Of a stretch of 64,000 nt of DNA, positions 32,855 to 59,154 are shown piece by piece. Made by a program: the position numbers and the translations under genes. A model generated the notes under the pieces. That model saw nothing but the letters and a program-made list of their open reading frames with translations, did not search any database and was not told the DNA's origin. Source of the stretch: Candidatus Cloacimonadota bacterium (lineage in GTDB: Bacteria > Cloacimonadota > Cloacimonadia > JGIOTU-2); the NCBI GenBank assembly GCA_049903315.1, contig JBNGBT010000002.1, forward strand, positions 1-64,000. Direction: 5' to 3'. Position 1 is the stretch's first letter, and each line of letters starts with the position of its first letter.

Positions 32855-34510
32855 ATGAAAAAAGTAATTTTCTTTTTCATTCTCATTATTGGGTTGTTCT
32901 CCGTTCAAGCTTTACTTGCTCAAGATAGTGTAGCCAAAGGTGTTATTAAACCCTCAGAAATACCCCCCGGCGCTACAGGATTGATATCAGTAACCTTTAC
33001 TATTCCTGAAGGAATGCATCAGACATTACAGGAAGATTATTTTTATATCGTAACTGACGAAGTTGATAGCATTGAATTTTTGCCCGTTCACTATCCTGAA
33101 GGCACTGAACATGAGGGGCTTATAGATTATTATGATTCTGTGATCCTTACTATGGAATTCATCGTAGCTGATGGTGCAAAGATAGGGGAGCGGGATGTAA
33201 AAGTATATGCAGGATACCAGTTCTGTGATGATGCGGGAATGTGTCATTTTCCTGAGGAAGATGAGCTTGTACTCTCTTTTGTTATCAGTGGTGAGCAACC
33301 TGTCAGTCCTACACAAAAGATTACCTCAACTGATACTAAGACTGAAGTAGCAAAGACATCTGGAACCGATTTTGCAGAGATTAAAAGTAAACTTGATGCG
33401 TTTGTCATGACGGACATTGCTGCCGGTTATCTAAAAAGTAAGGATTTCATCGCATTTGCAGAAAATGCAAAAACAGCAGATGGCTCATCTGCAAATAGAT
33501 TTGCAGGAATGAGTATCTGGCTTATTCTCCTTCTTATAGTTGTCGGAGGTATTGCCCTTAACCTTACTCCCTGCGTACTTCCAATGATGCCAATAACCAT
33601 TGCTGTACTCGGCGCAGGCACTCAGGCGGAATCCAAAGGGAAAGGTTTTTTGATCGGAGGTTTGTACGGAATTGGTATGATGCTGGCATACGGCGCGCTT
33701 GGTTTGATCGTGGTGCTTACAGGGTCGAGGTTTGGTGCAATAAATTCCTCTCCTCTATTTAACATAATAATTGCTGTCATTTTCATTTTACTCGCTCTTG
33801 CAATGTTTGATGTGTTCCCAATTGACTTCACAAAATTTCAGTCGGGCACAATGGCAGGTAAGAAATCAGGTAGGAGCAAATATATTACAGTATTTGTGCT
33901 GGGTGTGATAGCAGCTGTGCTTGCAGGTGCTTGCGTTGCGCCAGTGCTCATTTCAGTCATTTTGTATTCAGTCACATTATATACTTCAGGGAATCCGGCA
34001 GGCTTGCTTCTCCCCTTCCTCCTTGGCTTAGGCATGGCATTGCCATGGCCTTTTGTCGGTGCAGGACTTTCGATCCTTCCAAAACCCGGGAAATGGATGA
34101 AGTGGGTCAAGATCATTTTTGGTGTGATCATTCTCGTGATTGCACTTTATTATGGTTATACCGCTTTGCATATTTTCTCATCACAAGCACAGAACACAGA
34201 TCATGTAGTGGAATATACAGCAGAAGAAAACGAATCTGGCTTGTATTGGACTACCTCGCTAATGGATGGTCTTGAAAGAGCAAAAGAAGAGCGCAAACCG
34301 GTTCTCATTGATTTCTGGGCTACGTGGTGTAAAAACTGCCTTGCAATGGAAGCAACAACTTTCCGAGACGATGAAGTCGAAGAGGTTTTAAAGGATTTTG
34401 TTCTTGTCCGTTATCAAGCTGAGGATTTAAAGAAATCCCCAACAAAAGAGATACTCGATTACTACGATGTGCTCGGACTTCCTTCCTATGTCGTGCTTAT
34501 ACCCAAATAA
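32855..34510 (+). CDS. dsbD: Thiol:disulfide interchange protein DsbD (three-domain)
   Basis: N-domain QFCDDAGMCHFP; transmembrane domain LTPCVLPM and GACVAP; C-terminal thioredoxin DFWATWCKNC. Confidence 0.88.
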   Translation: MKKVIFFFILIIGLFSVQALLAQDSVAKGVIKPSEIPPGATGLISVTFTIPEGMHQTLQEDYFYIVTDEVDSIEFLPVHYPEGTEHEGLIDYYDSVILTMEFIVADGAKIGERDVKVYAGYQFCDDAGMCHFPEEDELVLSFVISGEQPVSPTQKITSTDTKTEVAKTSGTDFAEIKSKLDAFVMTDIAAGYLKSKDFIAFAENAKTADGSSANRFAGMSIWLILLLIVVGGIALNLTPCVLPMMPITIAVLGAGTQAESKGKGFLIGGLYGIGMMLAYGALGLIVVLTGSRFGAINSSPLFNIIIAVIFILLALAMFDVFPIDFTKFQSGTMAGKKSGRSKYITVFVLGVIAAVLAGACVAPVLISVILYSVTLYTSGNPAGLLLPFLLGLGMALPWPFVGAGLSILPKPGKWMKWVKIIFGVIILVIALYYGYTALHIFSSQAQNTDHVVEYTAEENESGLYWTTSLMDGLERAKEERKPVLIDFWATWCKNCLAMEATTFRDDEVEEVLKDFVLVRYQAEDLKKSPTKEILDYYDVLGLPSYVVLIPK

Positions 34511-34529: not shown

Positions 34530-35609
34530 ATGAAAAAATTTGCAGTATACTTCCTTGGAATTGTACTCGTGCTAACGATATTTTCCTGTGATAGATTTAA
34601 TCATCATTTTGATCCGTTCTTTACTCCATTCGAGCATTATTTGGAACGATTTGCAACTCATGTGGAAGATGGCATCTTATTTGATGATGTGGCATCTATC
34701 ATGTCCTACTATTCGGATACCTATCTGAACAACGGCGTGGAAAAATCAGGTATGGAGAATCTTTATACTTCCCTCGCTGATGCATCACCGGACAGCGTTG
34801 CAATTGAGATAGATATTCTCACAGAAGCTGAATATAAGGTATCATACCGTATTGTGACTGCAGGAGTTGATACCACTATTATTGACTATGCGCAAGCGCT
34901 GCGTGACAGCTTTCTTTTTATAGGAGATCAGATCGCACCACCGGTTCCACAAAAAGTATTGGTGGAAGTCATCACAGGTACATGGTGCCCGAACTGTCAC
35001 TATGCCGAGGAAGCACTTCAGCAGCTAAAACTGGAATATGGCGATTCCCTTTATTATATGGATTATCACTGGAATGACGTTCTGGACATCGGAGCGATAG
35101 AACTTATACAGTATTATGGGATGAACTATTCAGCTCCTCAATCTATGTTCCAGGGACAGGTAAATGTTACCGGCGGGGGGACAGAAACTTATGATCAATA
35201 CCTTAACACATTCACAACCTTGGCAAGTGAGGATGCTCTCGCACAGATCTTTGATTTCTCTTATACTGTTTCTGATACTCTATCAGGACAAGTTACGATA
35301 GACAAGGATGACACACTTCCACTAGTTGATTTATATCTTAAATATACGCTTGTTGAGAAGGTTTCATCAGTCAATGGATATAATGGAAGACCCTGCGAAC
35401 AGGTCGTTATCGCAAAAGGAATGAAAGATATAAGCAATGAAGATCTCGAAAACCCGGTTTCATTTAAGCTCGAAATGCCCCAAACAGTTCCGGATGATAT
35501 TGTGCTTTACATATGGTTGCAAACTCTTGCAGATCCGTATAATGCGGATACATGTAAAATATATAATGTCATTGAAGAAGATATTGTAATTGTGAAAGGG
35601 AGCAATTAA
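34530..35609 (+). CDS. Lipoprotein with an Omp28-like thioredoxin-fold domain (CPNC)
   Basis: Lipobox IFSC; KVLVEVITGTWCPNC; YH and cis-Pro-like SAPQSMFQG. Confidence 0.75.
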   Translation: MKKFAVYFLGIVLVLTIFSCDRFNHHFDPFFTPFEHYLERFATHVEDGILFDDVASIMSYYSDTYLNNGVEKSGMENLYTSLADASPDSVAIEIDILTEAEYKVSYRIVTAGVDTTIIDYAQALRDSFLFIGDQIAPPVPQKVLVEVITGTWCPNCHYAEEALQQLKLEYGDSLYYMDYHWNDVLDIGAIELIQYYGMNYSAPQSMFQGQVNVTGGGTETYDQYLNTFTTLASEDALAQIFDFSYTVSDTLSGQVTIDKDDTLPLVDLYLKYTLVEKVSSVNGYNGRPCEQVVIAKGMKDISNEDLENPVSFKLEMPQTVPDDIVLYIWLQTLADPYNADTCKIYNVIEEDIVIVKGSN

Positions 35610-36421
35610 TGAGAAAAATAAAAACTGTTCTGATAGTAAGTTTCATATTCTTCGCTTCCCTAACATTCGCATTGGACACGATGCCGGATTTCACACTTGA
35701 GGATATTAATGGTGACCAGGTAAATTTCGAAGAACTATTAAATAAAAAAGCTGTGATCATTGATTTCTGGGCGAAGTGGTGTACTCCATGCAAGAAAGCC
35801 CTCCCACATCTTAGTGATATTCAGTCAAAATATGATGATTTGGTAAATGTAGTATGTATTACCATTGATAAAGCGCGTGACAAAGGCAAGGTTAAATCTT
35901 TCGTGAAATCCAAGGACTATGAATTCATTACACTTTTTGACCCGAATCAAAGTGTATCAGATATGCTGAATATCATCTCGATCCCAAAGACTTTTATTGT
36001 TAATGAAGCCGGCGAGATCGTGTATACTCATGAAGGTTATACGCAGGGGGATGAAGTTGAACTGGAAGCTGAACTCAGGAAAATTATTTTTAAAAATATA
36101 ACTATGAAAGAGCTTAATAAAATATATCCCCAGGAAGAACTACCGGAGCCTACAACATATGTACTACCTGTGTATCCGGAAAAAGCTCATAATGACGGAA
36201 TCCAGACAGACATTATCCTTGATCTTGAAATTCTGGAGGATGGTACAGTGGGGGATGTGTGTGTTGTCAGTGCCTGTGAAGACCCAACTCATGGATTTGA
36301 GAATGCTGCGATAGAAGCAGCCGGGCAATGGGTATTCGAACCTATTACTATTGACAGCGTGTCCGTTAAAACCCGTGTCCTCTATCCAATTCGATTCAGA
36401 ATAGAAAAATATGAGAGGTGA
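35609..36421 (+). CDS. TlpA-family disulfide reductase fused to a TonB C-terminal domain
   Basis: PDFTLEDINGD, IDFWAKWCTPC, IPKTFIVN; then PVYPEKAHNDGIQ...EDGTV...FENAAIEAAGQWVFEP. Confidence 0.8.
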   Translation: MRKIKTVLIVSFIFFASLTFALDTMPDFTLEDINGDQVNFEELLNKKAVIIDFWAKWCTPCKKALPHLSDIQSKYDDLVNVVCITIDKARDKGKVKSFVKSKDYEFITLFDPNQSVSDMLNIISIPKTFIVNEAGEIVYTHEGYTQGDEVELEAELRKIIFKNITMKELNKIYPQEELPEPTTYVLPVYPEKAHNDGIQTDIILDLEILEDGTVGDVCVVSACEDPTHGFENAAIEAAGQWVFEPITIDSVSVKTRVLYPIRFRIEKYER

Positions 36422-36423
36422 TC

Positions 36424-37854
36424 ATGAAAAAAATCATACTATTGCTCGTCATCATATCCTTTGCTTCGTCCCTTTTTGCAGTGAACGATTTTCGCATAAT
36501 CGGTTTAAATGAGGCAACGTACGTTTATAAAAATGCAGAAGATTCCCTGAAGAATTATTTCTCGGATGAATTCAGTTTCAGATTGTCTTACAAAAATTTT
36601 ACATTTGGAATGAAGTTCATTGCGGATCTTCCCAGGTATGATGAATACGCTGCAATGCAGGATCTTACTTCTCAATCGATTTCGTATACATGGGATGAGC
36701 GGTTCCTTGAATATAAAGTGGATGATTTCTCTATACGTGCGGGAAACTTTGAGCAGGTCTTTGGTTCAGGTATTGCTCTTAGAGTCTATCAGGATAGAGA
36801 TTTCGATATTGATACCCGTCTGAATGGATTTTCGACAGAAATATTTCCAAAATTCTTTCAAATGAAAGCCCTGTATGGAGCACTGCCTAATAAGGATAAT
36901 GATACAAAGAATGACCTTGTCGCAGGACTTGATATGCAAAAAGATATATTTGATCCGCTCAAGGTTGGTGCATCTTTTGTGAATGTGCGCAAGTGGCAGG
37001 CAGGTGATAACTATCTGGATAGGAAGATATTTGGCGTTCGAGCCGATCTGGATGTCAGCTTATTCGATTTAAGTGCTGAATATGGCTATCTCGATCAATC
37101 CGAAGGCATTTCGAAGGTAGGACATGCTTTTTACGGAAATCTTAATACATATTTTGATATAATTTCTTTCTCTGTCGCATATAATAATTATTTAAATTTT
37201 GATTCACGTTTAAATGATCTTCCAATTCTCAATCACAGCAACGAACCCTTATACGATTCACCTATCGGAAAAGATCAGCAAGGTGTCATGGGTGAAGTAA
37301 CGTTCATGCCCAATGACTTTAATGAGATTATTGTTAATTATGCAGAAGAATGGAACAATGCATGGACGATCCGGCAGAGTGATCTGTGGGTTGAAGCAAT
37401 TCATTATTTTGACACTTCGACACTGGTCACAAGCTTTTCTCATCTTGAAAGAAAGGATGAAGAGGTGAACCACTGGGAAAAAGAAGTTACTCCTACTCTT
37501 ATGTATGATTTTATGATCGGGGAGACTCCTTTTTCCATAAAAGCGGAGTATCAGTATTTTGATAAACATTACCAGCAGGAAAAATCACATCATTGGGAAC
37601 CGCTTGTGCAAATCGATACGAATATCTTTGATTTTGATTTTTCAATCATTGCGGAATATTCGTATGAAAATATAAAAGATATTGGGAAAAATCCGCCATG
37701 GCTTGGTGCAGAGATAAGCAAAGAGATATTTCAGAGCTCGACAATGCGTCTTTTTATCGGCAAGGAAAAAGGCGGAAAGGTTTGCCGCAACGGCATTTGC
37801 AAATATCGCAACCAGTTTGAAGGATTACGTTTAGAATTAGTTACCACTTTTTAG
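36424..37854 (+). CDS. Outer-membrane beta-barrel (DUF6029-like) with C-terminal CxxxxC
   Basis: Signal peptide, amphipathic strands, RAGNFEQVFGSGIALR, GGKVCRNGICKY...GLRLELVTTF with terminal Phe. Confidence 0.72.
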   Translation: MKKIILLLVIISFASSLFAVNDFRIIGLNEATYVYKNAEDSLKNYFSDEFSFRLSYKNFTFGMKFIADLPRYDEYAAMQDLTSQSISYTWDERFLEYKVDDFSIRAGNFEQVFGSGIALRVYQDRDFDIDTRLNGFSTEIFPKFFQMKALYGALPNKDNDTKNDLVAGLDMQKDIFDPLKVGASFVNVRKWQAGDNYLDRKIFGVRADLDVSLFDLSAEYGYLDQSEGISKVGHAFYGNLNTYFDIISFSVAYNNYLNFDSRLNDLPILNHSNEPLYDSPIGKDQQGVMGEVTFMPNDFNEIIVNYAEEWNNAWTIRQSDLWVEAIHYFDTSTLVTSFSHLERKDEEVNHWEKEVTPTLMYDFMIGETPFSIKAEYQYFDKHYQQEKSHHWEPLVQIDTNIFDFDFSIIAEYSYENIKDIGKNPPWLGAEISKEIFQSSTMRLFIGKEKGGKVCRNGICKYRNQFEGLRLELVTTF

Positions 37855-37869
37855 TGGGAAGGAGCATAT

Positions 37870-38601
37870 ATGAAAAAAAATGTACTAATATTTATGAGTT
37901 TAATTTTATTAGGTGTCATCGGCTTGCATGCTGATCTGACAGTAAACATTCCTTTTGATCCTGATGTTATGGGACCTGCGTATAATGATACAAATTATAC
38001 TTATGTGTCTGAATATTTCGATGTGATAAATGAAGGAGTTACAGATGACTTTACTGTTATTGTAGATTACTTGGAGATTCCATCAGGATGGTCACTGGGT
38101 TGGTGTCACGAATATCAAGGCAGCGGTGCATGTCATGTGGTGCCTTATCCATGGACTTTTGAGTTTGGAAGCGGAGATACATTAAAATTAGATTTTTCTA
38201 TCTTTGTCACTTCAGCCGGTGCGATGCCTTTCTTTTATTCCTTTACCGCACCAAGCTTAGCATTTCCAACCGTTGTTGATTTTTCTTATACAACAGGCGT
38301 TGCAGTTGACGATCCGCAATATAACGAAAAGGTACTTCTGAAGAATTCACCGAATCCCTTTAATGAATCAACTGAAATTTCTTTTAATATAAAAAATTCT
38401 GCACACAGAGATGCAAAGATCGCAATATATAACCTTCAGGGAAAACTCATCAAAAGCTATTCTGTCAGCCCTGAAATGAATTCAATCACTTGGAACGGCA
38501 CTGACGAAAAAGGTGCAGCGCTTCCCAGTGGAGTGTACTTATACACTGTCACTATGGATGATGAGATCATGAAAACAGAAAAATTATTATTACTCAAATA
38601 A
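37870..38601 (+). CDS. Small secreted protein with a Cys pair and FlgD-Ig/T9SS-like C-terminal domain
   Basis: Signal peptide; GWSLGWCHEYQGSGAC; tail NSPNPFN...IYNLQGKLI...WNG...PSGVYLY. Confidence 0.8.
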   Translation: MKKNVLIFMSLILLGVIGLHADLTVNIPFDPDVMGPAYNDTNYTYVSEYFDVINEGVTDDFTVIVDYLEIPSGWSLGWCHEYQGSGACHVVPYPWTFEFGSGDTLKLDFSIFVTSAGAMPFFYSFTAPSLAFPTVVDFSYTTGVAVDDPQYNEKVLLKNSPNPFNESTEISFNIKNSAHRDAKIAIYNLQGKLIKSYSVSPEMNSITWNGTDEKGAALPSGVYLYTVTMDDEIMKTEKLLLLK

Positions 38602-43321: not shown

Positions 43322-45499
43322 ATGAAAAAATTACTTATACTAATCGCGGCTTTAATTATGCTTCCCGCAATTCTTTCTGCAACACAAATGAACGTGGTCG
43401 GGGAAGTATTTACATCCACGTCTTGAGGATACTGTCCTTCAGCCCGGGCCGGGTTGAGAGATCTTCAAGCTAATTTTGATAACTTTATACCGCTTTTCTG
43501 GCAAAGCACCAGCGGCTACGTGGGGATGCCAAGTCCCAATTACAGCACCCGTGGGGGTATGTACGGTGTCAGCGGTATTCCACATGCTCGATTTGGAGGA
43601 TACATCTCTGAAGTTGGTGGAATTGCTGGCGGTAATATGTACAATTATTATCTTCCTCATTACAATACACTTAATGCCCTGGATAGTCCATGTGCTATTG
43701 ACATTACGATGGATGTTACCTCTAAATCTACCATTGATGTTCAAGCTGATGTTGAATTGACTGGAAATATTACTACTACTAACAACAAGATCATTCTTCT
43801 GCTTACATACAAATACACTGATGATTATACTTGTGCGGTCGTTGCATATCATGATGAGAACTTTAATCTTACCACAGTAGGTCAGACCGGAAGCTTTTCC
43901 TATTCATTCGCGTATGACCCAGACTGGGTATTACCCGATTTGAAGGCAGTTGCTATTGTTCAGCCCTTTTCAAGCAATTACAAAATACATCAGGCAGCCA
44001 CTTGTGGTGTGAGCGGCATTTTCTCAATCTTCAGCAGCAATATTCAATCCGGACCACCGCAATTGGGTGTACAATTCTATAATGAATCATATCCTGATAC
44101 AGGCATTGTATCATATGAATGGGACTTTGACGGAGATGGAACATGGGACAGTACAGAAGAAAATCCATATCATCTTTATGACACGATTGGTAGTTATAAT
44201 GTATCACTCCGCATCTCTGATGGAGTCGAAACAGCAACTACAACAGCAGATGATTATATCACTGTAACGAACAGCTCAGATATTTCCGGAGAATTATCCG
44301 GTATATGGACAGAAACATATAGTCCATATATTATCACCGACGATGTGCATCTTGCGGATGAAAATCACCTGGAGATCGGACCGAATGTGGTAATCCATAC
44401 GAACAACGGAAGCAAAATCACGATTGAAGGATACTTCCGCGCAGTAGGTGATGAACGAGGTAACATCATTTTTATGACTGATGATACCTGGAGCGGTTTA
44501 TACTTCTTCAATTCACCTTATGAAAATGCACTGAGTCACGCAAATATAACCGGTTCTAATAACTGCGCAATCGATATTTATAACTCCCGAGTAGTAATAG
44601 GTTATAATACTATTTTTGGAAACTCCACAAGCTCTCAGAAAGGACCTGCGATCAATGCAACGAATGCTGACGAAGTGCTTATTGAATGGAATCTGATATC
44701 CAATAATACAAGCTCGAGTTTGTGTGGTGCGATAAGTTTGGATAATTCCTCTCCGCTTATTGTTCGTAACATCATTGTGAATAATGAAGCGGTCTATTCC
44801 GGTGCATTTAGCATGAAGAATGCATCATGTCCGGAACTTCTCAATAATACTATAGCGAACAACCTTGCGAGTTATGTATTTTATTTGTTTTCAAGCTCTA
44901 ATCCTATAATCGAGAATTCTATTATCAGGAACACGAGTAATGTGTTCATTAACTTCTCCAGCACACCTTTAGTCACATATTCTGATGTTTCAGGTGGATT
45001 CACAGGGACAGGCAATATCGATGAAAATCCCCTGTTTGTTAATCCAACTGCCGGTGACGGACCTACTTATGACGGGCTTGCAGCTGATTGGGGCTTACAG
45101 CAATCCTCCCCATGTATCGATGCAGGAAATCCTACTTCACCACCCGATCCTGACGGCACTCGTGCTGATATGGGTGCTCTGTATTACCATCAATATGTGT
45201 CTGTAGATGACCCGGAGGTAATACCGGTTTCCGTACACAACTTCCCTAATCCTTTTGCCAATAAAACGACTATTTCTTTTAATTCAACTGCGAATCTACA
45301 GGGCTTGGATCATATTACCATCTACAATATAAAAGGTGAGATGGTTACAACCTTAGCTTTAGAAGCATCTGATTCAGGATTCAGCACTGTATGGGATGGT
45401 AGAGATGATGCAGGAAAGAGTGTTTCAAACGGAATATATTTCTACAAATTCAAAGCAGAAGATATTGAAAGAACACAGAAATTGATCTTAATGAGATAG
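43322..45499 (+). CDS. Secreted selenoprotein 1 (725 aa, Sec35): Omp28-like UxxC thioredoxin fold, PKD, beta-helix, C-terminal sorting domain
   Basis: ATG 43322 with AAGGA RBS gives MKKLLILIAALIMLPAILSA-TQMNVVGEVFTSTS[TGA 43424]GYCPSARAGL, in frame with ORF 43454..45499. A hairpin follows the TGA and selABC is nearby. Confidence 0.9.
43439..43457 (+). promoter_or_regulatory. Putative bacterial SECIS hairpin 1
   Basis: TCAGCCCG-GGC-CGGGTTGA: 8-bp stem with one G-U pair and a G-starting loop 20 nt after the TGA. Confidence 0.75.
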
Positions 45500-45555
45500 C
45501 TGATACTCAATTTAGAAGATACATAGAGCAGGATGTCGTAGTCCTGCTCTTTTTT
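45422..45555 (+). repeat. 134-bp direct repeat copy 1 (gene 3' end, stop and terminator)
   Basis: Near-identical to 47769..47902; contains the terminator AGAGCAGGAT-GTCGTA-GTCCTGCTCT-T5 at 45525..45555. Confidence 0.9.
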
Positions 45556-45767
45556 GTATGGAAAAAACTTCCAATTATAATCCAGTTAGCGGATATCCGA
45601 ATATTTGTATGTGCAAGAAAAATAAATTTGACAACAAAGAAAAATAAATTTCGAATTTACTTAAGTAAAGTTGATGCTGGTTTTATATGCTTACTGGACG
45701 GAAAATATCATGAAAAAATGGAAAAAAGACTGTAAACAATTTATTTTAACTTCATAATGGAGGAATA

Positions 45768-47846: not shown

Positions 47847-47902
47847 CTGATACTCAATTTAGAAAATATATAGAGCAGGATGTCACAGTCCTGCTCTTTT
47901 TT
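47769..47902 (+). repeat. 134-bp direct repeat copy 2 (gene 3' end, stop and terminator)
   Basis: Matches 45422..45555; terminator hairpin at 47872..47902. Confidence 0.9.
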
Positions 47903-48071
47903 ATTATATGAATTAGTAATTTCATCTGGCAATTTTGCGGTTAAATAGAGAGCAATTATACATATTTATCCCATAAGAAAGGACGAAATTTAGAACTCAA
48001 TTAATTCCAGAAAAATTTGACAAAAAATTAGGGTATTTCCCAATGAAATAAATTAATTTCAGGAGGAGCAG

Positions 48072-49994
48072 ATGAAAAAATTAGCTGTTCTCATATTTCT
48101 TATGATCCTCTCATCAACAGTTTTTGCAGCGTATCAGGTCGGCGATGTAGTTTCAAATTTCAGCTGGACTGATAACACAAGCACAACGCATAATATTTAT
48201 GACCTCATCGACGCGGAAAAAGCGATCGTATTTTTCTGGGGAGGTACTGGTTGAGGTGGCTGTGTTTCGGCGGCGCCGCAATTAGAAACTATCTGGCAAA
48301 ATTACCAAGGAACCGGTCATTGTTACATTCTTTCCGAAACCGACTGGACTTCTTATGGAGCAACATATTTTAATTCTTATGATATCGATCCTTATTACTC
48401 TCAATATGGAAACGGGTTTATTCCATTTTTTGCTGTCATTGGTGGTGAATACAAATTGTATTACGGAGACAATAGTGTGGGTAGTGTACCAGCTGCGCTG
48501 GATGCTGCCATTGCATCCTTGGGTTTATATGCAAATTTTGATGCAAATATAACTCAGGGACCTCCAGAACTCACTGTGCAGTTTACCAGCACATCGTCAG
48601 GTGCTCCGGATGCATGGGACTGGGATTTCAACAATGACGGTACCATTGATAGTCACGAAGAAAATCCTGTGTGGACCTACACCGGAGTTGGTTCTTATGA
48701 TGTTTCTCTTACAGTTTATGAAGGAGCTGATAGCGATGAACTCATTCAAGAGGACTTTATTACTGTTCTCGATCCATCGAATGTATCCGGTGAATGTGCT
48801 GGAAATTGGTCACCCACTTATGGAACGTACACGATTACTGGGAATGTTACCGTTCCTGTCGGTACGGTTCTGTCGATCGAGCCAAGCACGAATATCGTTG
48901 TAAATAATGGCAGCAAGATTGAAGTGAAAGGCAGAATTGAAGCACAGGGTTCAGAACGTGGATTGATACACTTCTCAACCGGCACTACATGGAAAGGTGT
49001 AAAGATAATCGATAGTCAAGAAGACAATGTGATCGATTTATGCTATTTCACAGGTTGTACAGAAAGTGCAGTTGATATTGATAATTCTACAGTAGATGTT
49101 CTCAACAGCACGTTTTATGAAAATACCAATACGAATCAAAAAGGTCCTGCTATAAATGTATTAGATGCCAGTGATGTCCTTATAATGGGTAATTCAATTG
49201 CAAATAACTATAGTTCTGTCCTTTCAGGTGGTATTGTGCTCGATAATGCCTCGGTTGAGATTTCCCATAATATCATTGTGAATAACGAAGCTACTTTTGC
49301 CGGTGCAATTGGAATGAAAAATGGATCTGATGCATCACTTATCAATAATACGATTGCAAACAATGTCGGGAGCTATGCCTGTATTTATCTTATATCCTCT
49401 TATCCGAATGTACTCAATACGATCATCATTCATGATGGTTTGATATTCACGACATTCAGCAGTAATCCAATAGTAAACTATTCCTGTATCTCAGGCGGAT
49501 ATTCCGGAACAGGAAATATCAGCGATGATCCGGAATTTGTGACTCCCTCTGCAGGGGACGGCATTGCCTATGATGGTTTAGCTGCAAACTGGAATCTGCA
49601 AGAAACTTCTCCGTGTATTGATGCGGGAGATCCTTCCTCACCTCCTGACCCTGACGGCACGATTGCAGATATGGGTGCTTTGTACTATCATCAGGTAGTC
49701 TCGGTTGACGATCCACACAGCAACATGATCTATGTCAGACAGAATGCACCGAATCCTTTCAAAGGTTCTACTTCAATATCCTATTCATTGCCAAAGAATT
49801 CCGAAAATGCTGTCATCACGATCTATAATGTCAAAGGTGATGTTGTGAAGGAATTTACTCTTGAAAACACAGAAGGTGATATCATATGGAATGGTATGGA
49901 TCAGAATAATAATGCTGTTGCAAGCGGAGTTTATTTTTATAAACTGCAAGGAGATTCCATTTCTCAGACCAGGTCAATGGTCTTCATGAAGTAG
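48072..49994 (+). CDS. Secreted selenoprotein 2 (640 aa, Sec61): AhpC/TSA-TlpA-like UxxC fold, PKD, beta-helix, C-terminal sorting domain
   Basis: ORF 48072..48254 ends in TGA (48252), but the frame stays open: ...KAIVFFWGGTG[U]GGCVSAAPQLETIWQNY...FIPFFAVIG, joining ORF 48456..49994 with no other stop. AGGAGG RBS and signal peptide. Confidence 0.9.
48264..48289 (+). promoter_or_regulatory. Putative bacterial SECIS hairpin 2
   Basis: Apical CGGC-GGC-GCCG (48268..48278), with the loop 17 nt after the TGA; flanking GTTT/AAAC can form a lower stem. Confidence 0.65.
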
Positions 49995-50022
49995 CATTTT
50001 ACTCATATACATAGCTTTCGGT

Positions 50023-50117
50023 TGAGAGGAAGGAACTGGTGTTCCAGCTGGTCTTCAAAATCAGTAGTGAGCGGATAACACCGTTTATGGCAGGTTCGAT
50101 TCCTGCCCTCTCGGCCA
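50023..50117 (+). tRNA. selC: tRNA-Sec (anticodon UCA)
   Basis: Acceptor TGAGAGG/CCTCTCG; D arm GGAAC-TGGT-GTTCC; 6-bp anticodon stem with loop CTTCAAA (TCA at 50055..50057); long variable arm; T arm GCAGG-TTCGATT-CCTGC; G discriminator and CCA; immediately before selA. Confidence 0.95.
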
Positions 50118-50145
50118 TTTTTTTATTTAAAAAATAGGAATTGAA

Positions 50146-51525
50146 ATGGATAAAAACGAACTCAGAAAAATTCCCGGAGTGGATACCTTGAAAAAGACCT
50201 CAAAGATTAAAGAACTCATTTCTGAATTTGGAGAAGAACTCACAGTTTTCTCAATCCGCCAGGTATTGGATAAGGTAAGAGAATCTGTTCTACAAGGGAA
50301 GAGAATTCCATCCGAAGATAAGATGCTTGCTATGATCGGGCAGAGAATAAATAATATTGGTTCCCAATCATTAAAACCAATGATCAATGCGACGGGTATC
50401 GTGCTGCATACAAATCTTGGGCGAGCCCCACTGGGTGAAGTACTCACAGAGGAAGTATCCAGAGTAATTCACGGATACTCCAATCTTGAGTTCGATTGTG
50501 AAAAAGGAAAGCGGGGTCACAGGGGAAACCATATCACTGATCTTATTACTTTTATTACAGGCGCAGAAGATGCAGTTGTCGTAAATAATAATGCAGCAGG
50601 TGTGTACCTGTCTCTCAGAACATTTTCAAAAGGTAAAGAAGCAATCATATCTCGCGGTGAACTGATAGAGATAGGTGGCTCATTCCGCATACCTGATATC
50701 ATGAAACAAAGCGGTGCGAAAATGATCGAAGTGGGTACAACAAATCGTACACGCCTATCAGATTATGAAGCAGCAATTACTGACAAAACTGCGGTACTGT
50801 TCAAGGCACACAAATCAAATTATTATATAGAAGGATTTTCCGAGGAAGTAGAGATAGAAGCTCTTGCGCAGCTCGCGCATGATAAGGAACTCATGTGTGT
50901 TTTTGATTTGGGATCGGGATTACTGAGAAAACCAACGGGGCTCTTATTAGAAACTGAACCGGATGTTCATAGTGCAATTGCGTCCGGTGCCGATCTCGTG
51001 ATGTTCAGTGGTGATAAACTTCTGGGTGGTCCTCAAGCAGGCATTATTGTCGGCAAAAAGAAGTATATTCAGAAATTGAAGAAATCACCACTTATGCGTG
51101 TACTTCGGGTAGGAAAAATGACGCTTGCAGCACTCTCTGCAGTGATCCGATGCTATCTCAAAGATGAAACACTCCTTGAAAATGTGCCAGTTTTCCACTT
51201 GCTGGATCAGAAAAAAGACGAACTGCAAGAGAAAGCACTACAGTTTTCAAAACTCCTTTTAAAAGAAAAAATTCCTAATATAATTATTGAAAATACGGCT
51301 CATTGCGGCGGAGGGACTCTTCCACAAGTTGAAATTCCCAGTTTTGCAGTGCGGCTTGATCTCTTAAAAACAAGGATTACTCCAGAACAGCTTTACCATC
51401 AATTGCTTCAATTAGAGAAACCTATTCTCGGTATTCTTCGCGAGGGTACGATACTCTTTGATGTGTTCACTTTAACTGAAGACCAGTTTGAATACATAGC
51501 AAAGCAAATAGTTGCTTTTAATTGA
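50146..51525 (+). CDS. selA: L-seryl-tRNA(Sec) selenium transferase
   Basis: INATGIVLHTNLGRAP, YSNLE, VVNNNAA, SRGELIEIGGSFRIPD, PLP-lysine FSGDKLLGGPQAG. Confidence 0.97.
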   Translation: MDKNELRKIPGVDTLKKTSKIKELISEFGEELTVFSIRQVLDKVRESVLQGKRIPSEDKMLAMIGQRINNIGSQSLKPMINATGIVLHTNLGRAPLGEVLTEEVSRVIHGYSNLEFDCEKGKRGHRGNHITDLITFITGAEDAVVVNNNAAGVYLSLRTFSKGKEAIISRGELIEIGGSFRIPDIMKQSGAKMIEVGTTNRTRLSDYEAAITDKTAVLFKAHKSNYYIEGFSEEVEIEALAQLAHDKELMCVFDLGSGLLRKPTGLLLETEPDVHSAIASGADLVMFSGDKLLGGPQAGIIVGKKKYIQKLKKSPLMRVLRVGKMTLAALSAVIRCYLKDETLLENVPVFHLLDQKKDELQEKALQFSKLLLKEKIPNIIIENTAHCGGGTLPQVEIPSFAVRLDLLKTRITPEQLYHQLLQLEKPILGILREGTILFDVFTLTEDQFEYIAKQIVAFN

Positions 51526-51541
51526 GTGGTACATTGAAAAC

Positions 51542-51710
51542 AATATCCAATATCCAACAAGGAATTTCCAAGTACCTTACAGATGATAAATATAATAATG
51601 GGAAAGAATATTTTAAACACAATATGAATAATTTGAGAATTGCTTTTGAAGATTCGAGCGAGACTGAATTTCTATGGATATTGGTTATCCTGTATTGGAT
51701 ATTGGACATT
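51542..51710. repeat. Inverted repeat made of heptamer units enclosing a decayed small ORF between selA and selB
   Basis: AATATCCAATATCCAA (51542..51557) versus TTGGATATTGGACATT (51695..51710), one mismatch. Confidence 0.6.
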
Positions 51711-51788
51711 CAGTCTATTTGTTTTACTTTAACATCCCAATTAAAATTATATGCAAACGAATTATAAAGAGTATCAAACAAAAACGTC

Positions 51789-53723
51789 ATGAAGCATTTG
51801 ATAATGGGTACAGCAGGTCATGTTGACCACGGCAAAACTGCGCTCATCAAGGCACTGACAAATTTTGATTGCGACACGCACAAGGATGAGAAAAAACGAG
51901 GGATCACTATTCATCTTGGTTTCACACATCTCGATCTACCGAATGGGAACAGCATCGGTATAATTGATGTGCCCGGGCATAAAGATTTCATCAACACGAT
52001 GATATCTGGAGCCAGCACAATTGATTTTGTGCTTTTTACTGTCGCTGCAGACAGCAGTATCATGCCGCAAACGAGCGAGCATCTGCATATTATGGAGCTT
52101 CTGGGTATCAAAAACGGCATTATTGCACTAACAAAATGCGATACAGTTGATGAAGAAATATTGGAACTCGTTGAGCTTGAAATTGACGAGTTCGTTGCAG
52201 GTACATTTCTTGAGCACGCTCCGATCATTAGAACATCTACAAAAGATAATATGGGAATGAGTGAATTAATGAGTGAGATCAGTAAAATCACAGAGAAAAT
52301 TGAGCAGCGATCATCCGGATTATTTTTCAGAATGTACATCGACAGGATTTTCAGCGTTCAAGGTTTTGGTACGGTTATAAACGGGTCGGTTTTGCAAGGA
52401 AGCGCAACAAAGAATACAGTTTTGTATTTACTCCCCGGGAGTAAAGAATTGAGGATTCGCAAGATGGAACATCACGGGAAAGAGGTGAATGAAGTGGTAT
52501 CCGGTCAGCGAGCTTCTTTGAATGTGGTGGGACTGGATATACAGAATTTCCAGCGTGGAATGATGGTATCAGAAAGAATCATAAAACCTACAAAAATGAT
52601 CGATGCGGAACTCACTTTATTTGATCATGACAGAACTTTCGGAATATGGAATCATGCCCTTTTTCTCATGGGTACTTTTGAAGATCAAGTAAGGATACAT
52701 TTACTCGATAAAGATACTTTACAAGGTGGTGAAAAAGGATTGGTGCAGATACATCTTGAAAAAGAATGCTTTCCAATTTTTGGAGATTCATTCATTATCA
52801 GGAGCACGTCCGGAGATATTACACTTGGGGGAGGTAAGGTGCTGGATGCATATCCCCTTCATCATAAAAAGCGAACTCCGCAAATCATGGAACATATACA
52901 GACAATTGCGGATGGGGGTTTGCCGGCATTCATCGCAGCTGAGGTGAGAAAGCGACCTCATGCAGTTCCTCTACCATTTCTTGCAGAAATTTCTAACATT
53001 CCTGAACAAGAATTGAAAGAAATAGTATTAGCTTCCATTCCCGATGATATCGAGATAAGAGAAGTCAATCAAAAAATATTATTAGTAGCTCTCTCAAGAA
53101 TTGGACTGATTAAAGGAAAAATTACCAAAATACTCACGAAGCATCACACGGAGAATCCGCTTATACAAAGGGGAAAAACCTTCGAAGAATTATCCAGTCT
53201 ACTGAATCTGGGCACAGAATATGACGTTTCATTCTTGAGTATGCTGTTGGAAGAAATGAGTAATAATAAAGTTCTGCGTAAGATTGAAGGAACGTATGCT
53301 CTTAAAGAAAAGGATAATTCGCCTTCCGATCAAGAAATAAAAAAGATAAAGAAAATCGGACAATTCATATTGAGTTTTGGTATGAAAGTTCCTTTAATGA
53401 ACGAGATAAAGGAATTTGGCCAGACACAGGGAATGTCTCAGAAAGAACTGCATGATATTATCAATTTTCTTATTGAAAATAAAGAAATCGTTACGATCGA
53501 AGGTTCGTTTATTCACGCAGCGATCATTGAAAAAGCGAAGAATGTGTTAATCGCACATTTCGAAAAGAATGAGACGCTCATGCTTGCTGATTTTCGTGAT
53601 AACTTGCAGGCAAATAGGAAGATATGCCTGTTGTTACTCTCTTATTTCGATGATAAGGGATGGACTGTTCGCAAAGGTGATTATCGGATATTGTCCGAAA
53701 AAGGTAAGGAGTTATTACACTGA
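51789..53723 (+). CDS. selB: Selenocysteine-specific elongation factor
   Basis: GTAGHVDHGKT, EKKRGITI, DVPGH, IDRIFSVQGFGTV; C-terminal winged-helix FRD...RK....L.YFD..G.T.R.GDYR. Confidence 0.97.
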   Translation: MKHLIMGTAGHVDHGKTALIKALTNFDCDTHKDEKKRGITIHLGFTHLDLPNGNSIGIIDVPGHKDFINTMISGASTIDFVLFTVAADSSIMPQTSEHLHIMELLGIKNGIIALTKCDTVDEEILELVELEIDEFVAGTFLEHAPIIRTSTKDNMGMSELMSEISKITEKIEQRSSGLFFRMYIDRIFSVQGFGTVINGSVLQGSATKNTVLYLLPGSKELRIRKMEHHGKEVNEVVSGQRASLNVVGLDIQNFQRGMMVSERIIKPTKMIDAELTLFDHDRTFGIWNHALFLMGTFEDQVRIHLLDKDTLQGGEKGLVQIHLEKECFPIFGDSFIIRSTSGDITLGGGKVLDAYPLHHKKRTPQIMEHIQTIADGGLPAFIAAEVRKRPHAVPLPFLAEISNIPEQELKEIVLASIPDDIEIREVNQKILLVALSRIGLIKGKITKILTKHHTENPLIQRGKTFEELSSLLNLGTEYDVSFLSMLLEEMSNNKVLRKIEGTYALKEKDNSPSDQEIKKIKKIGQFILSFGMKVPLMNEIKEFGQTQGMSQKELHDIINFLIENKEIVTIEGSFIHAAIIEKAKNVLIAHFEKNETLMLADFRDNLQANRKICLLLLSYFDDKGWTVRKGDYRILSEKGKELLH

Positions 53724-56064: not shown

Positions 56065-57570
56065 ATGGAAATAAAGAAAATATCGACATTGCATTTACCA
56101 GTTGATCTTGCATATCTTTCTGCTGCACAGGCGTTTATAAATGAACTTGCGCGGCTTGCAAAATTTTCACAAAAGGATATTACATTTTTTAATATTGCTG
56201 TTGAGGAAGCAATCACAAATGTGGTGAAACATGCATTCCTTCCGGACGAAGATGCGACATTCGATGTGATCTGCGAACTCACTCCAGTTGAGTTCAAGGT
56301 TATTATAAAAGATAGAGGATTACCTTTTGATCCAAGCCAGGTTGCTGATTTCTCTGCAGAAAGATCCCTGGACGGAGATGAGCAGGTCGGACTCGGATTT
56401 CGTCTCATGAAGGGCAGCGTGGACCAGTTGTCATTTCATAATATGGGTTATGGTGGCAAGGAAGTTCATCTTGTTAAGTTCGTTGATCAGAAGCATGTTG
56501 AAAAATATTTCCATAAATCAGAGATGCAAGCCTTCGAACAGCCAACATATAAATCGAAGCAGGAGAGAGTTGCCATACCTTTGCATGTGGAAGTTCTCCA
56601 GCAGAAACAAGCGATAGAAATATCCCAGTGTGCGTATCGAACCTACGGATACACCTACATTATGGAGAATATCTATTATCCAGAACGTCTCATAGAAATG
56701 ACCAGATCAGGTGAGCTCATTTCAGCCGTTGCAGTGTGTGAAGAAAATGGTGAAGTGATGGGGCACTGTGCTCTCGAACGCTTCGGTAAAAAATGGGATG
56801 TGCCTGAAATGGGAATGGCGTTCACTAAACCAAAGTTCCGTGGACAAGGCTGTATGACACGCCTTACTGCATTTTTATCCGAAGAAGCAATTAAAAAGGG
56901 AATAAAAGGTATGTATGCAAAAGGTGTGACCACTCATCCATATTCGCAAAAAGCATTGCTGAGTGGTGGTTTTAAAGATTGTGCGATCCTTATCGGTTTG
57001 TCACCCCCGAAAACATTTGAAGGAATGAAGGAGCAGGGGGCACAGCGAGAAACCCTTGTTTTGACTTATATGAAGCTGATCGACCAGAAACTGAACGTGT
57101 TCTCGACAGAGAAACACAAATGCATGATCGAAAAAATATATAAGAACGTACAAATAGATGCAACTGTAAAAATACATGATAAAAAAGAGTTGAAATCTAA
57201 AAAGATGGTGCAATCCGATGTGGAAGTGGAAATGAAAGATTCATTGCAGTTTGCAAATATCTACATCAATGACTGCGACGAAAATATTAAACTGGAAATC
57301 AGGCAGCGTGTGAGAGAACTCTGCCAAAAGAAGATCGAAACGATAGATCTCTATATCGATATGTGTGACGGGAATTCAATTAACTATATTGAGGATTTAG
57401 AATCGCTGGGATTCTTCTTTGCAGGTGTATTTCCAAATGATAAAAAGCAGTACATTGTTCTGCAGTATTTGAATAATGTACCAATTGATTATAAGAAAAT
57501 TGTTTTTGTCTCTGATTTTGCACAAGAACTTGGTGCGTATGTAAAAGAGTGCGATCCGAACCAAAAATAG
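56065..57570 (+). CDS. RsbW-like HATPase fused to a GNAT-like domain, copy 1
   Basis: AVEEAITNVVKHA, IKDRGLPFDP, GLGFRLMK; later PEMGMAFTKPKFRGQG. Confidence 0.82.
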   Translation: MEIKKISTLHLPVDLAYLSAAQAFINELARLAKFSQKDITFFNIAVEEAITNVVKHAFLPDEDATFDVICELTPVEFKVIIKDRGLPFDPSQVADFSAERSLDGDEQVGLGFRLMKGSVDQLSFHNMGYGGKEVHLVKFVDQKHVEKYFHKSEMQAFEQPTYKSKQERVAIPLHVEVLQQKQAIEISQCAYRTYGYTYIMENIYYPERLIEMTRSGELISAVAVCEENGEVMGHCALERFGKKWDVPEMGMAFTKPKFRGQGCMTRLTAFLSEEAIKKGIKGMYAKGVTTHPYSQKALLSGGFKDCAILIGLSPPKTFEGMKEQGAQRETLVLTYMKLIDQKLNVFSTEKHKCMIEKIYKNVQIDATVKIHDKKELKSKKMVQSDVEVEMKDSLQFANIYINDCDENIKLEIRQRVRELCQKKIETIDLYIDMCDGNSINYIEDLESLGFFFAGVFPNDKKQYIVLQYLNNVPIDYKKIVFVSDFAQELGAYVKECDPNQK

Positions 57571-57648
57571 TAAAAAATTTTTCGAGTGCACATCTACATC
57601 CTTGACATTTAATTTTGACATTGTTGCTTTTTTTCATTTGGAGGTTCA

Positions 57649-59154
57649 ATGGAAGTAAGAAAATTATCGATCTTACATGTGCCTGCTGACCTGGTATATC
57701 TTGCAGCAATACAGGCATTTATAAACGAGCTTGCGCGTCTAGCCGAGTTTTCTCAAAAGGATATTACTTTCTTCAGCGTAGCAGTCGAGGAAGCAGTCAC
57801 AAATGTTGTCAAACACGCATTTCTGCCAGACCAGGAAGAGCATTTTGATGTTATATGTGAGTTGACTCCTATAGAGTTTAAGGTTATTATTCGGGATAAA
57901 GGATTACCCTTTGATCCAAATCGAGTAGAGGATTTTTCAGCCGAGCAATCTCTTGATGGCAATGATCAGGCAGGGCTTGGATTCAGGTTAATGAAAGGAA
58001 GTGTTGATAAACTTTCATTCCATAATTTGGGTTTTGGAGGTAAAGAAGTCCAACTTATAAAATTTATTGATCAGAAGCATATCGATGAATATCTTAAAGC
58101 ATCTCAAATGGAAGCTTTCGATCAACCTGAATTTGTCGAGAAAAAAGAACTGGTAAAGATACCATTCCACCCTATGCTCCTGCAACCCAACCAGGCAGTC
58201 GAGATATCACAATGTGCATATAGGGCATATGGCTACACATATTTAATGGAGAATATCTATTATCCTGAACGTCTTATTGAAATGAACAAAACCGGTGAAC
58301 TCATATCTGCTGTTGCAGCATCCGATGAAAATAATGAGGTGTTGGGGCATGTCGCACTCGAGTTTTTTGGTAGAAAGAAAAAGATTCCTGAGTTGGGTAT
58401 GGCATTCACAAAACCAAAATTTCGCAGACAGGGCTGCATGACACACCTGAGTGAATTTCTTGACCAGCAAGCTCTTGAGAAAGGTGTAAAAGGTATCTAT
58501 GCTGATGCAGTGACAGTTCATCCCTACTCTCAAAAAGCACTTCTCAGTTGTGGTTACAAGTCTGCTGGTATACGTATAGGATTAGATCCGCCGAGAAACT
58601 TTAAAAGTATGGAGAATCAATGTACACAGCGCGAGACATTGGTGCTTATGTATAAAATGTTAATTACTCAGGACGTCGAAGTATTAGTGCCAGTGCATCA
58701 TAAGGGCATTATTGAGAAAATATACAAAAATATCGGGATCAAGGCAGAAGTGCATACGCTCAGAAATGTTGATGAAGACACGAACAAAATGGCTCAATCC
58801 GATGTGGAAGTGGATGTTGTAGAGTCAGCGAGGATTGCCAGCTTCATTGTTAATTCTGTTGGGGAAAATTTTCAGGAAGAGATAAAGTACCGGCTTCGTG
58901 ACCTATGCCTGAAAAAGATCGAGGTAATCGACCTGCGTTTGGATATGTGCAATAATAATCTCGTGAAATGCGTTCCTCAGCTGGAAATGCTCGGATTCTT
59001 CTTCTCAGGTGTTTTACCAGATGATGATAAACAATATCTCTTGCTGCAATATCTCAATAATGTGCCAATTGATTATTCAAAAATAGTGTTAGTTTCAGAT
59101 TTTGCTCAGGAACTTGGAAAGTATGTAAAAGAGTGCGACCCGAACCAGAAGTAG
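57649..59154 (+). CDS. RsbW-like HATPase fused to a GNAT-like domain, copy 2
   Basis: Same 501-aa length and motifs as copy 1; both end YVKECDPNQK. Confidence 0.82.
   Translation: MEVRKLSILHVPADLVYLAAIQAFINELARLAEFSQKDITFFSVAVEEAVTNVVKHAFLPDQEEHFDVICELTPIEFKVIIRDKGLPFDPNRVEDFSAEQSLDGNDQAGLGFRLMKGSVDKLSFHNLGFGGKEVQLIKFIDQKHIDEYLKASQMEAFDQPEFVEKKELVKIPFHPMLLQPNQAVEISQCAYRAYGYTYLMENIYYPERLIEMNKTGELISAVAASDENNEVLGHVALEFFGRKKKIPELGMAFTKPKFRRQGCMTHLSEFLDQQALEKGVKGIYADAVTVHPYSQKALLSCGYKSAGIRIGLDPPRNFKSMENQCTQRETLVLMYKMLITQDVEVLVPVHHKGIIEKIYKNIGIKAEVHTLRNVDEDTNKMAQSDVEVDVVESARIASFIVNSVGENFQEEIKYRLRDLCLKKIEVIDLRLDMCNNNLVKCVPQLEMLGFFFSGVLPDDDKQYLLLQYLNNVPIDYSKIVLVSDFAQELGKYVKECDPNQK

Follow-up and report, generated by a model that had tools for sequence, protein, structure and literature searches.

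The stretch of DNA analysed here, referred to as the window, comprises positions 1 to 64,000 of the forward strand of contig JBNGBT010000002.1 (assembly GCA_049903315.1) from a Candidatus Cloacimonadota bacterium. Among named organisms, close relatives occur in Ca. Celaenobacter antarcticus (88%) and elsewhere in the Cloacimonadota, and the host can be described as Ca. Celaenobacter-like. Our subject is the gene at 48072..49994, which standard open reading frame (ORF) calling breaks into a 60-residue piece and a TTG-started remainder of 512 residues at 48456. Translation with TGA read as selenocysteine (Sec) bears out the proposal of the initial annotation that the two ORFs share one frame, since the sole stop-type codon inside the gene is the TGA at 48252-48254 (U61). 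The comparisons described below strongly support a single selenoprotein gene in place of two broken frames. The gene and its immediate surroundings contain the following features.

47872..47897, + strand: terminator-like hairpin closing the gene upstream of 48072
48017..48022, + strand: TTGACA, a candidate -35 element with a poor -10, kept in 7/7 of the same-genus loci displayed despite differing upstream genes
48072..49994, + strand: full gene, 640 codons with a single in-frame TGA, ending at TAG
48072..48128, + strand: signal peptide, residues 1-19, recognised by eye (KK, hydrophobic core, VFA then AYQ)
48129..48530, + strand: TlpA/ResA/Prx-type thioredoxin-fold head, residues 20-153 (AlphaFold2 (AF2), Foldseek, VIA-align)
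48252..48254, + strand: TGA, putative Sec61, first position of UxxC, in a column conserved in homologues
48261-48263, + strand: Cys64, last position of UxxC
48268..48278, + strand: hairpin CGGC-GGC-GCCG resembling a Sec insertion sequence (SECIS), identified by conservation, its loop beginning 18 nt after the UGA
48423..48425, + strand: Pro118 at the cis-Pro position of the thioredoxin fold, invariant in 31/31 aligned heads, just before strand E100-105 of the model
48531..48767, + strand: PKD domain, residues 154-232 (PF18911, E 1.4e-8)
48927..49289, + strand: right-handed beta-helix region, best stretch residues 286-406 (PF13229, E 5.1e-9)
49749..49991, + strand: type A C-terminal sorting domain (CTD) of the secretion system called type IX (T9SS), FlgD-Ig-like (TIGR04183, 31 bits against a cut-off of 23; PF18962, PF13860)

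The start at 48072 is preceded by AGGAGG at 48061-48066. The TTGACA assigned to the gene in the initial annotation is present, with a poor -10, and for that reason is absent from the list returned by a promoter scan, which found 44 sites against 44.4 in shuffled sequence; across the genome, no clear -10 motif follows intergenic TTGACA (410 sites). By eye, the signal-peptide region (residues 1-19) is without a lipobox Cys, and its layout is common to the homologues.

The principal evidence that TGA 48252 encodes Sec comes from the behavior of this codon in homologous genes. A profile search of 232 Cloacimonadota genomes gave 62 matches in 53 genomes, 60 of them with one TGA and two without. The two loci L070 and L071 were counted apart as non-Sec, and the weak TGA matches L072-L074, which belong to a different subfamily, were excluded from the counts. 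In every one of the 60 TGA-bearing matches the TGA falls in the U61 column and is followed by xxC, so that Cys64 is likewise present in 60/60, and the column is fixed across heads down to ~36% identity. The two matches lacking TGA carry Cys and Ser at this position. Among 52 metagenome loci, which overlap the genome set and hence are not independent of it, the 49 that could be scored at the site show TGA in 46, TGC in two and TCT in one. The TGC loci L095 and L096 are full-length genes with signal peptides, each followed by a tandem Sec paralogue; L095 is 55% identical overall to the 48072 protein, and in a tree of 78 heads and 134 columns both nest among Sec rows beside the tandem Sec paralogue with support of 100 and 98. 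P0005 is a more distant Cys form (45% identity), and P0012 and L071 likewise have Cys at the site. The pairing of Sec with Cys homologues at position 61, on whose absence the initial annotation would have given up its proposal of a hidden selenoprotein, thus exists. Such a tandem Cys paralogue could serve as a Cys back-up under low selenium. L095 also shares one contig with a selC-adjacent Sec orthologue (L097), ~12 kb away.

Several relatives depart from this pattern. L070 and L071 (G134:C160 and G175:C145) have lost the redox pair (SxxS and CxxS) as well as the hairpin, and sit on long CTD proteins. Further TGA-bearing redoxin-like heads occur at L072, L074, L073 and L069; two of these have UGNMC, one has UPNC in a genome without a selA match (G210), and one is a Sec member of a long-insert, Delongbacteria-like group.

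The genome itself encodes selA, selB, selC and selD, the last recognised by sequence. The alternative that TGA is a true stop, yielding a 60-residue peptide and a separate 512-residue protein or a pseudogene, or that it is read as Trp or Gly, would accommodate several observations: protein libraries hold the head family mostly as split halves (P0007, P0006, P0009), GGTGGTG precedes the TTG at 48456, and HBP35 of Porphyromonas gingivalis, described in an excerpt of PMC2907840 as a surface CTD protein of thioredoxin type with insulin-reducing activity, has shorter internal translation products (PMC2907840, same excerpt). Against a split gene stand the fixation of TGA at the catalytic Cys column and the existence of Cys counterparts. 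A stop here would also divide the fold between two products, with no signal peptide on the one that carries the CTD, and the codon aligned with TTG 48456 is start-type in only 8 of 54 heads scored, which argues against the independently initiated downstream protein that had been named as a refutation. An altered genetic code was rejected: TGA is an ordinary stop in this genome, where it ends 18/177 CTD genes and RF2 is present, and the sole UCA tRNA is tRNA-Sec, none for Trp or Gly having been found. We therefore regard the stop and Trp/Gly readings together as extremely improbable. A codon-usage screen for Sec candidates missed both the 48072 gene and its Omp28-type neighbour (below), and must be considered insensitive for that reason.

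The distribution of the head follows that of the Sec machinery in part. selA was found in 49/53 carrier genomes, and of the four without a selA match one has selB and selC (G189) and another selC (G180); neither selA nor the head occurs in any of 98 genomes of family f5. Weighing against a strict association, no clear Sec marker is seen in the remaining two carriers (G133, 61% complete, and G170, 64%), and 57 of 106 selA-positive genomes have no head match.

The bases immediately downstream of the TGA provide a second line of evidence. Positions +14 to +24 after the UGA form the hairpin CGGC-GGC-GCCG, with its GGC loop at +18 in 58/60 homologues. GGCGGCGCC is conserved in 55/60, and 51/60 have G at each of the four wobble positions, compared with a background of 15/136 GCG among flanking Ala codons of the same genes and 13.7% genome-wide. 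The outer pair (+14/+24) is C-G in 54 homologues, A-U in four, G-U in one and unpaired in one; in the A-U cases, three of which fall in one clade, a Glu codon is matched by a synonymous Pro change. The hairpin is broken in the Cys and Ser copies L070, L071, L095 and L096. The GGC loop of this genome's selD likewise lies at +18, as does a GGUC loop in a peroxiredoxin gene, and the Omp28-type neighbour has its GGC loop at +21. A GGC-triloop rule selects 8 of 133,612 TGA triplets, with long frames on both sides only at the 48072 and 43322 genes; this rule was drawn from those two genes, missed selD (3 GC pairs) and is illustrative only. The element resembles the bacterial SECIS consensus (the bSECISearch model, as given in part of PMC13188914) in its 3-nt loop starting GG, its 4-bp upper stem and a loop ~17-18 nt from the UGA, inside the stated ranges (16-37 nt). 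It differs in having a minimal stem, with -4.2 kcal/mol for the 4-bp hairpin alone compared with a limit of -7.5 for the whole element (PMC13188914, same part). That low stability counts against the assignment, as do two further points. The minimum free energy structure from ViennaRNA takes another register (the 45-nt post-UGA region folds at -11.6 kcal/mol) with z of +0.7 to +1.1, no better than shuffles, and the stem positions mostly never vary and therefore say little about structure. With these points included, comparison of the homologous sequences makes it almost certain that Sec61 and its SECIS are real; SelB would read the GGC-loop hairpin just after the UGA and insert Sec61.

The head is predicted with high confidence to be a thioredoxin domain with an N-terminal hairpin. 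AF2 modeling of residues 20-153 from a 31-row alignment, the structure prediction that the initial annotation had suggested as a check, gave a TlpA-like fold at a predicted local distance difference test (pLDDT) score of 96.4, whereas a single-sequence model of the mature 621-residue protein reached a pLDDT of 35, too low to be of use. The best Foldseek match is 4nmu (E 1.9e-8, TM 0.78), and ResA/TlpA/DsbE structures lead both this search and VIA-align, where the best have Z of 14.4-14.8 and a root-mean-square deviation of 2.3-2.9 A over 123-132 residues. The layout of these proteins is reproduced in the fold, the N-terminal hairpin, a (C/U)xxC at a helix start and a cis-Pro position, and Pro118, which belongs to the FIPFFAVIG segment first singled out as cis-Pro-like, is inferred to be in the cis form. 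Since Sec holds the first position and both Cys64 and Pro118 are invariant, the layout is that of a disulfide oxidoreductase. The head was first described as AhpC/TSA-TlpA-like, and this description has held for the fold, while the peroxiredoxin motifs are missing. The Gly-rich GGTG-U-GG-C site regarded as atypical is not a family constant, with UGGC in 33/60, UPxC in 20/60 and W often before U.

Other observations complicate assignment to the TlpA class. Bcp peroxiredoxins reach Z of 13.2-13.3, no more than ~1.6 Z behind the top match. Compared with TlpA, the active-site loop has one extra residue, which breaks the FWAxWCxxC spacing of TlpA/ResA/DsbE, and the loop can be aligned to the peroxiredoxin BcpB without a gap. 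By BLASTP the head is 28% identical over 54 residues (E 1e-5) to the TlpA encoded at 35609 with a one-residue gap (FWGGTG-U versus FWAK-W-C), and the gap-free alignment originally reported requires the conserved FW to be moved by one position. The head also scores below Pfam and NCBIfam cut-offs (18.4 bits for the ResA model, cut-off 170; 18.8 for PF08534, cut-off 26.6). Weak PF00578/PF08534 matches occur in 29 of the 31 heads, and NF045500 (Omp28_seleno), NF041054 (WAxxUGC) and NF040769 (SelL-related) gave no match to the head at E up to 1.

These features bear on which reaction the enzyme catalyzes. An envelope peroxidase of the Prx/GPx kind, shielding an aerotolerant anaerobe and having Sec as its peroxidatic residue, would account for the gap-free BcpB alignment over the active-site loop and for the Bcp, AhpE and GPx folds among the structural matches, and Ace Lake Cloacimonadota have been inferred to be aerotolerant (PMC8542988, in part). 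The PxxxTxxC/U motif of peroxiredoxins (PxxxTxxC as given in part of PMC13188914) is, however, absent, with U at the Thr position and Gly for Pro. A conserved catalytic Arg is a feature of peroxiredoxins. The 31 heads contain no invariant or near-invariant Arg, and Pro, not Arg, starts the late strand where the Prx Arg would lie. Together with the lead of ResA/TlpA/DsbE in both fold searches, this makes a peroxidase distinctly unlikely. A different role for the same selenoprotein, as a periplasmic or secretion-step isomerase or oxidase that folds or proof-reads CTD cargo, is also unlikely, albeit a little less so. The 177 CTD domains in the genome would supply such cargo, the top VIA-align match (2ls5) is annotated as a putative disulfide isomerase, and complementation of an E. 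coli dsbA mutant has been reported for HBP35 (PMC2907840, in part); on the other side, the CTD and a 400-residue stalk suggest export beyond the periplasm, the gene at 35609 already provides a separate TlpA of periplasmic type, and the Pfam scan shows no dimerisation domain of the DsbC kind. Fold and motif thus make a disulfide reductase, rather than a peroxidase or isomerase, the likely function. Sec61 would attack a substrate disulfide and Cys64 would resolve it, in a TlpA/ResA-like manner, and the likeliest substrates of such a reductase would be disulfide-bonded extracellular proteins.

The protein has the features of a T9SS type A cargo, namely the signal peptide recognised by eye and the TIGR04183 match, and SprA, PorU and six PorV-family genes are above cut-off in the genome. 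A GldM/PorM model found nothing, though it matched in no control genome either; possibly the motor of this genome's T9SS is of another kind or absent. An excerpt of PMC11285876 says of Cloacimonadota that T9SSs 'may also be present'. Export and surface display of the 48072 protein are, by these signals, highly likely. The signal peptide would export the chain and the head would fold in the periplasm; a T9SS-type apparatus (SprA, PorV, PorU) would take the chain via its CTD and probably anchor it on the surface, with the PKD and beta-helix regions acting as a stalk.

A second gene within the window carries the same kind of tail.

43322..45499, + strand: Omp28-type UxxC selenoprotein gene, TGA at 43424-43426, with the same PKD/beta-helix/CTD tail

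The tails of the two proteins are 47% identical. The neighbour matches NF045500 with 82 bits, below the cut-off of 200, and has a strong GGC-loop hairpin; its homologues in the Sec-less family f5 are mostly without an internal stop. In another genome (L075, G216:C182:1-2200) the gene before selC has an Omp28-type region, inside which the contig begins, joined to a tail with 77% identity to the 48072 tail, and heads appear exchangeable on this account. Two adjacent CTD genes of the window end almost identically, each with a copy of one terminator-like hairpin (45500-45560 and 47847-47905), which suggests duplication or exchange of gene ends. Outside the window, three further genes of this genome (C22:67756-68793, C22:307393-309399 and C69:9698-11845) have an in-frame TGA between a signal peptide and a CTD. 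Their motifs are CxGU-type or CEYGU, and their G-loop hairpins, the weakest being that of C69, lie at +19 to +22. The candidate Sec genes among the 177 CTD domains therefore number five (48072, 43322, two on C22 and one on C69), and five different selenoproteins appear to leave the cell by this one kind of tag.

A possible source of reducing power is encoded upstream in the window, in an operon with the following members.

32855..34510, + strand: DsbD-like protein, first operon gene (PF02683; NF001419 211 bits, below the cut-off of 330)
34530..35609, + strand: Omp28-like lipoprotein with CxxC (NF033782 E 4e-5, below cut-off), both Cys invariant in 13/13
35609..36421, + strand: TlpA-like protein (WCTPC) with a C-terminal TonB_C domain, by family-library matches
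36418..37854, + strand: DUF6029 outer-membrane barrel (PF19494) with a CxxGxC pair near its C-terminus
37870..38601, + strand: small CTD protein of 243 residues with a Cys pair, kept in 10/10 homologues

Cys pairs are kept in every member; that of the DUF6029 barrel is present in 97/99 homologues, the two misses being without a normal C-terminus, and would presumably lie in the last outer loop, given the usual barrel topology. TlpA is fused to the DUF6029 barrel in two genomes, G173 and G164 (L142:3793-5715 and L143:5571-7499); these fusions are followed directly by selC and by another DsbD/TlpA-like set. In 20 of the 43 genomes that contain both head and DUF6029, drawn from families f1 and f15, the two are on the same strand and no more than 13 kb apart, and in six of 12 neighbourhoods (G154, G157, G186, G187, G189, G228) the small CTD gene is immediately followed by the head gene. 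selC is near DUF6029 in 11/42 genomes, five of them without a 48072-type gene between.

Other aspects of the distribution weaken the link. The 12 neighbourhoods were picked, not sampled, and 10 were chosen for a link already seen. No head-DUF6029 link is seen in 23 of the 43 genomes, where the two are mostly on separate contigs, and in the single-contig genome G103 the head, barrel and selC are far apart. The Sec-less family f5 keeps the operon without a 48072-type gene, with an Omp28-type gene after the barrel (L149). Complex prediction for the DUF6029 barrel with the Omp28-like lipoprotein gave 0.31 and 0.24 against a mark of 0.32, from 14- and 13-row alignments without folded controls, and counts neither for the link nor against it. 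DUF6029 has instead been suggested to act in polysaccharide export (PMC9603273, in part).

Re-reduction of the enzyme would start with DsbD, pass through TlpA and the DUF6029 barrel's Cys pair, and continue to surface Cys-pair proteins. DsbD/CcdA to TlpA/ResA constitute periplasmic reducing pathways. The present operon resembles these in being led by DsbD-like and TlpA-like genes, and differs in its further members: an outer-membrane barrel whose Cys pair is conserved, a lipoprotein with CxxC, and redox proteins bearing a CTD. Gene order, the fusion and the conserved Cys make re-reduction via DsbD, TlpA and the barrel a serious possibility, to which we give somewhat less than an even chance. 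An exported selenol/thiol-disulfide reductase fed by the linked operon is, overall, the account we consider probable, with an electron path that we infer. The SECIS, the signal peptide, the T9SS-type tail and the upstream operon with DsbD, TlpA and DUF6029 go unmentioned in the initial annotation. More speculative is a wider scheme, in which the selenoenzyme may form the outermost step of a so far undescribed thiol relay that spans the outer membrane: DsbD would supply TlpA, TlpA would reduce the conserved Cys pair in the last loop of the DUF6029 barrel, to which it is fused in some relatives, and the barrel would recharge surface-anchored, T9SS-sorted Sec and Cys redoxins, the Sec machinery being attached to the operon end in this organism's own family.

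Downstream of the 48072 gene lie the genes for Sec synthesis and insertion.

50023..50117, + strand: selC, tRNA-Sec (UCA) by ARAGORN; Rfam start 50020
50146..51525, + strand: selA (TIGR00474, 550 bits, above cut-off)
51789..53723, + strand: selB (TIGR00475, 319 bits, above cut-off)

By ARAGORN selC begins 28 nt after the TAG of the 48072 gene, and no terminator-like site is listed on the + strand between them. The gap between selA and selB (51526-51788, 263 nt) contains an 81-residue ORF without a family match; it looks like a recent insertion because relatives have ~25 nt here. From this spacing the initial annotation proposed that the gene may lead the sel transcript. The short gap and the missing terminator stand, and the arrangement itself is restricted: of 48 genomes that have the gene and selC, 11 show it immediately upstream of selC, all in its own family and in three genera, and in the other 37, including all f15 members, the two are non-adjacent. 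In RNA run X1 (share 0.06; a relative at ~85% identity) the listed contigs cover most of 48031-49717, one of them across the TGA, and one covers 50005-50291, from selC into selA; among the 8 matches listed none bridges the gene end and selC, and the library may contain DNA. One transcript with selC-selA-selB is plausible from the gene arrangement, in the organism's own family only. Since Rho is present in the genome, stopping at U61 might have polar effects on the sel genes, as a family-specific side effect. That the gene is chiefly regulatory, its early UGA being a selenium sensor whose termination at U61 is Rho-polar on selC-selA-selB, is a further step. The 28-nt gap without a terminator-like site, the adjacency in three genera, the conserved TTGACA and Rho would be in keeping with such a sensor. 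It is nevertheless very unlikely: in addition to the 37 non-adjacent genomes and the lack of a bridging RNA contig among those listed, other CTD genes precede selC in G216, G222, G225 and G229, selC lies near DUF6029 without a 48072-type gene in G164, G171, G173, G174 and G229, and positive feedback on the Sec machinery itself would be odd.

Comparison with known systems places the 48072 protein among familiar folds in an unfamiliar setting. It shares with TlpA/ResA/DsbE(CcmG) (PDB 4nmu, 2f9s, 3gl3) the N-terminal hairpin, first-position nucleophile, resolving Cys and cis-Pro position, and departs from them in having Sec for Cys, in being 14-21% identical, and in being export-tagged without an N-terminal helix membrane anchor. 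Generic UxxC thioredoxin-fold selenoproteins are alike in fold, UxxC and a coding-region SECIS, whereas the 48072 head scores below cut-offs, has a loop one residue longer than TlpA, and comes with a signal peptide, stalk and T9SS-type CTD. Table 1 in the available part of PMC13188914 contains generic UxxC families that could absorb this head, and review text on such families makes no mention of Cloacimon-, T9SS or secret-. HBP35 is a precedent in having a thioredoxin-type active site on a CTD-bearing exported protein, and unlike the 48072 protein uses Cys. NF045500 (Omp28-related selenoprotein, GOS_C) is matched below cut-off by the 43322 neighbour with which the tail is shared, but the 48072 head is TlpA-type and not Omp28-type.

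Literature searches gave only partial precedents. For selenocysteine together with T9SS they returned only papers whose titles concern other topics, and for selenoproteins in Cloacimonadota only tRNA-Sec work, as far as the portions available of those sources extend; no paper pairing a selenoprotein with Omp28 was found, coverage of subscription journals being thin. 'Seleno' does not occur in the main texts of PMC8542988 and PMC12590816, the supplements lying outside the term search. For BSepDB, tblastn searches starting from known families were run on Ca. Celaenobacter genomes (PMC13326102, in part), and because of that survey the database may already contain the 48072 gene under some generic heading. 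Elsewhere in the window, 56065-59154 holds two tandem 501-residue paralogues with HATPase_c_2 and GNAT domains, and a plasmid search gave no match.

In sum, sequence comparison makes the 48072 protein a well-supported candidate UxxC thioredoxin-fold selenoprotein that stands out for its export tag and for the link to an envelope redox operon as yet unstudied. The recoding and the fold are ordinary; the family is without a curated model, is split in protein collections, and occurs in 53/232 Cloacimonadota genomes. The natural Cys paralogues L095 and L096 offer assay material that requires no Sec expression system. Selenocysteine chemistry on a type IX-type export tag, of which the literature search found no description, raises the question of how an oxidoreductase outside the outer membrane would be supplied with electrons, and the linked operon is a concrete candidate answer.

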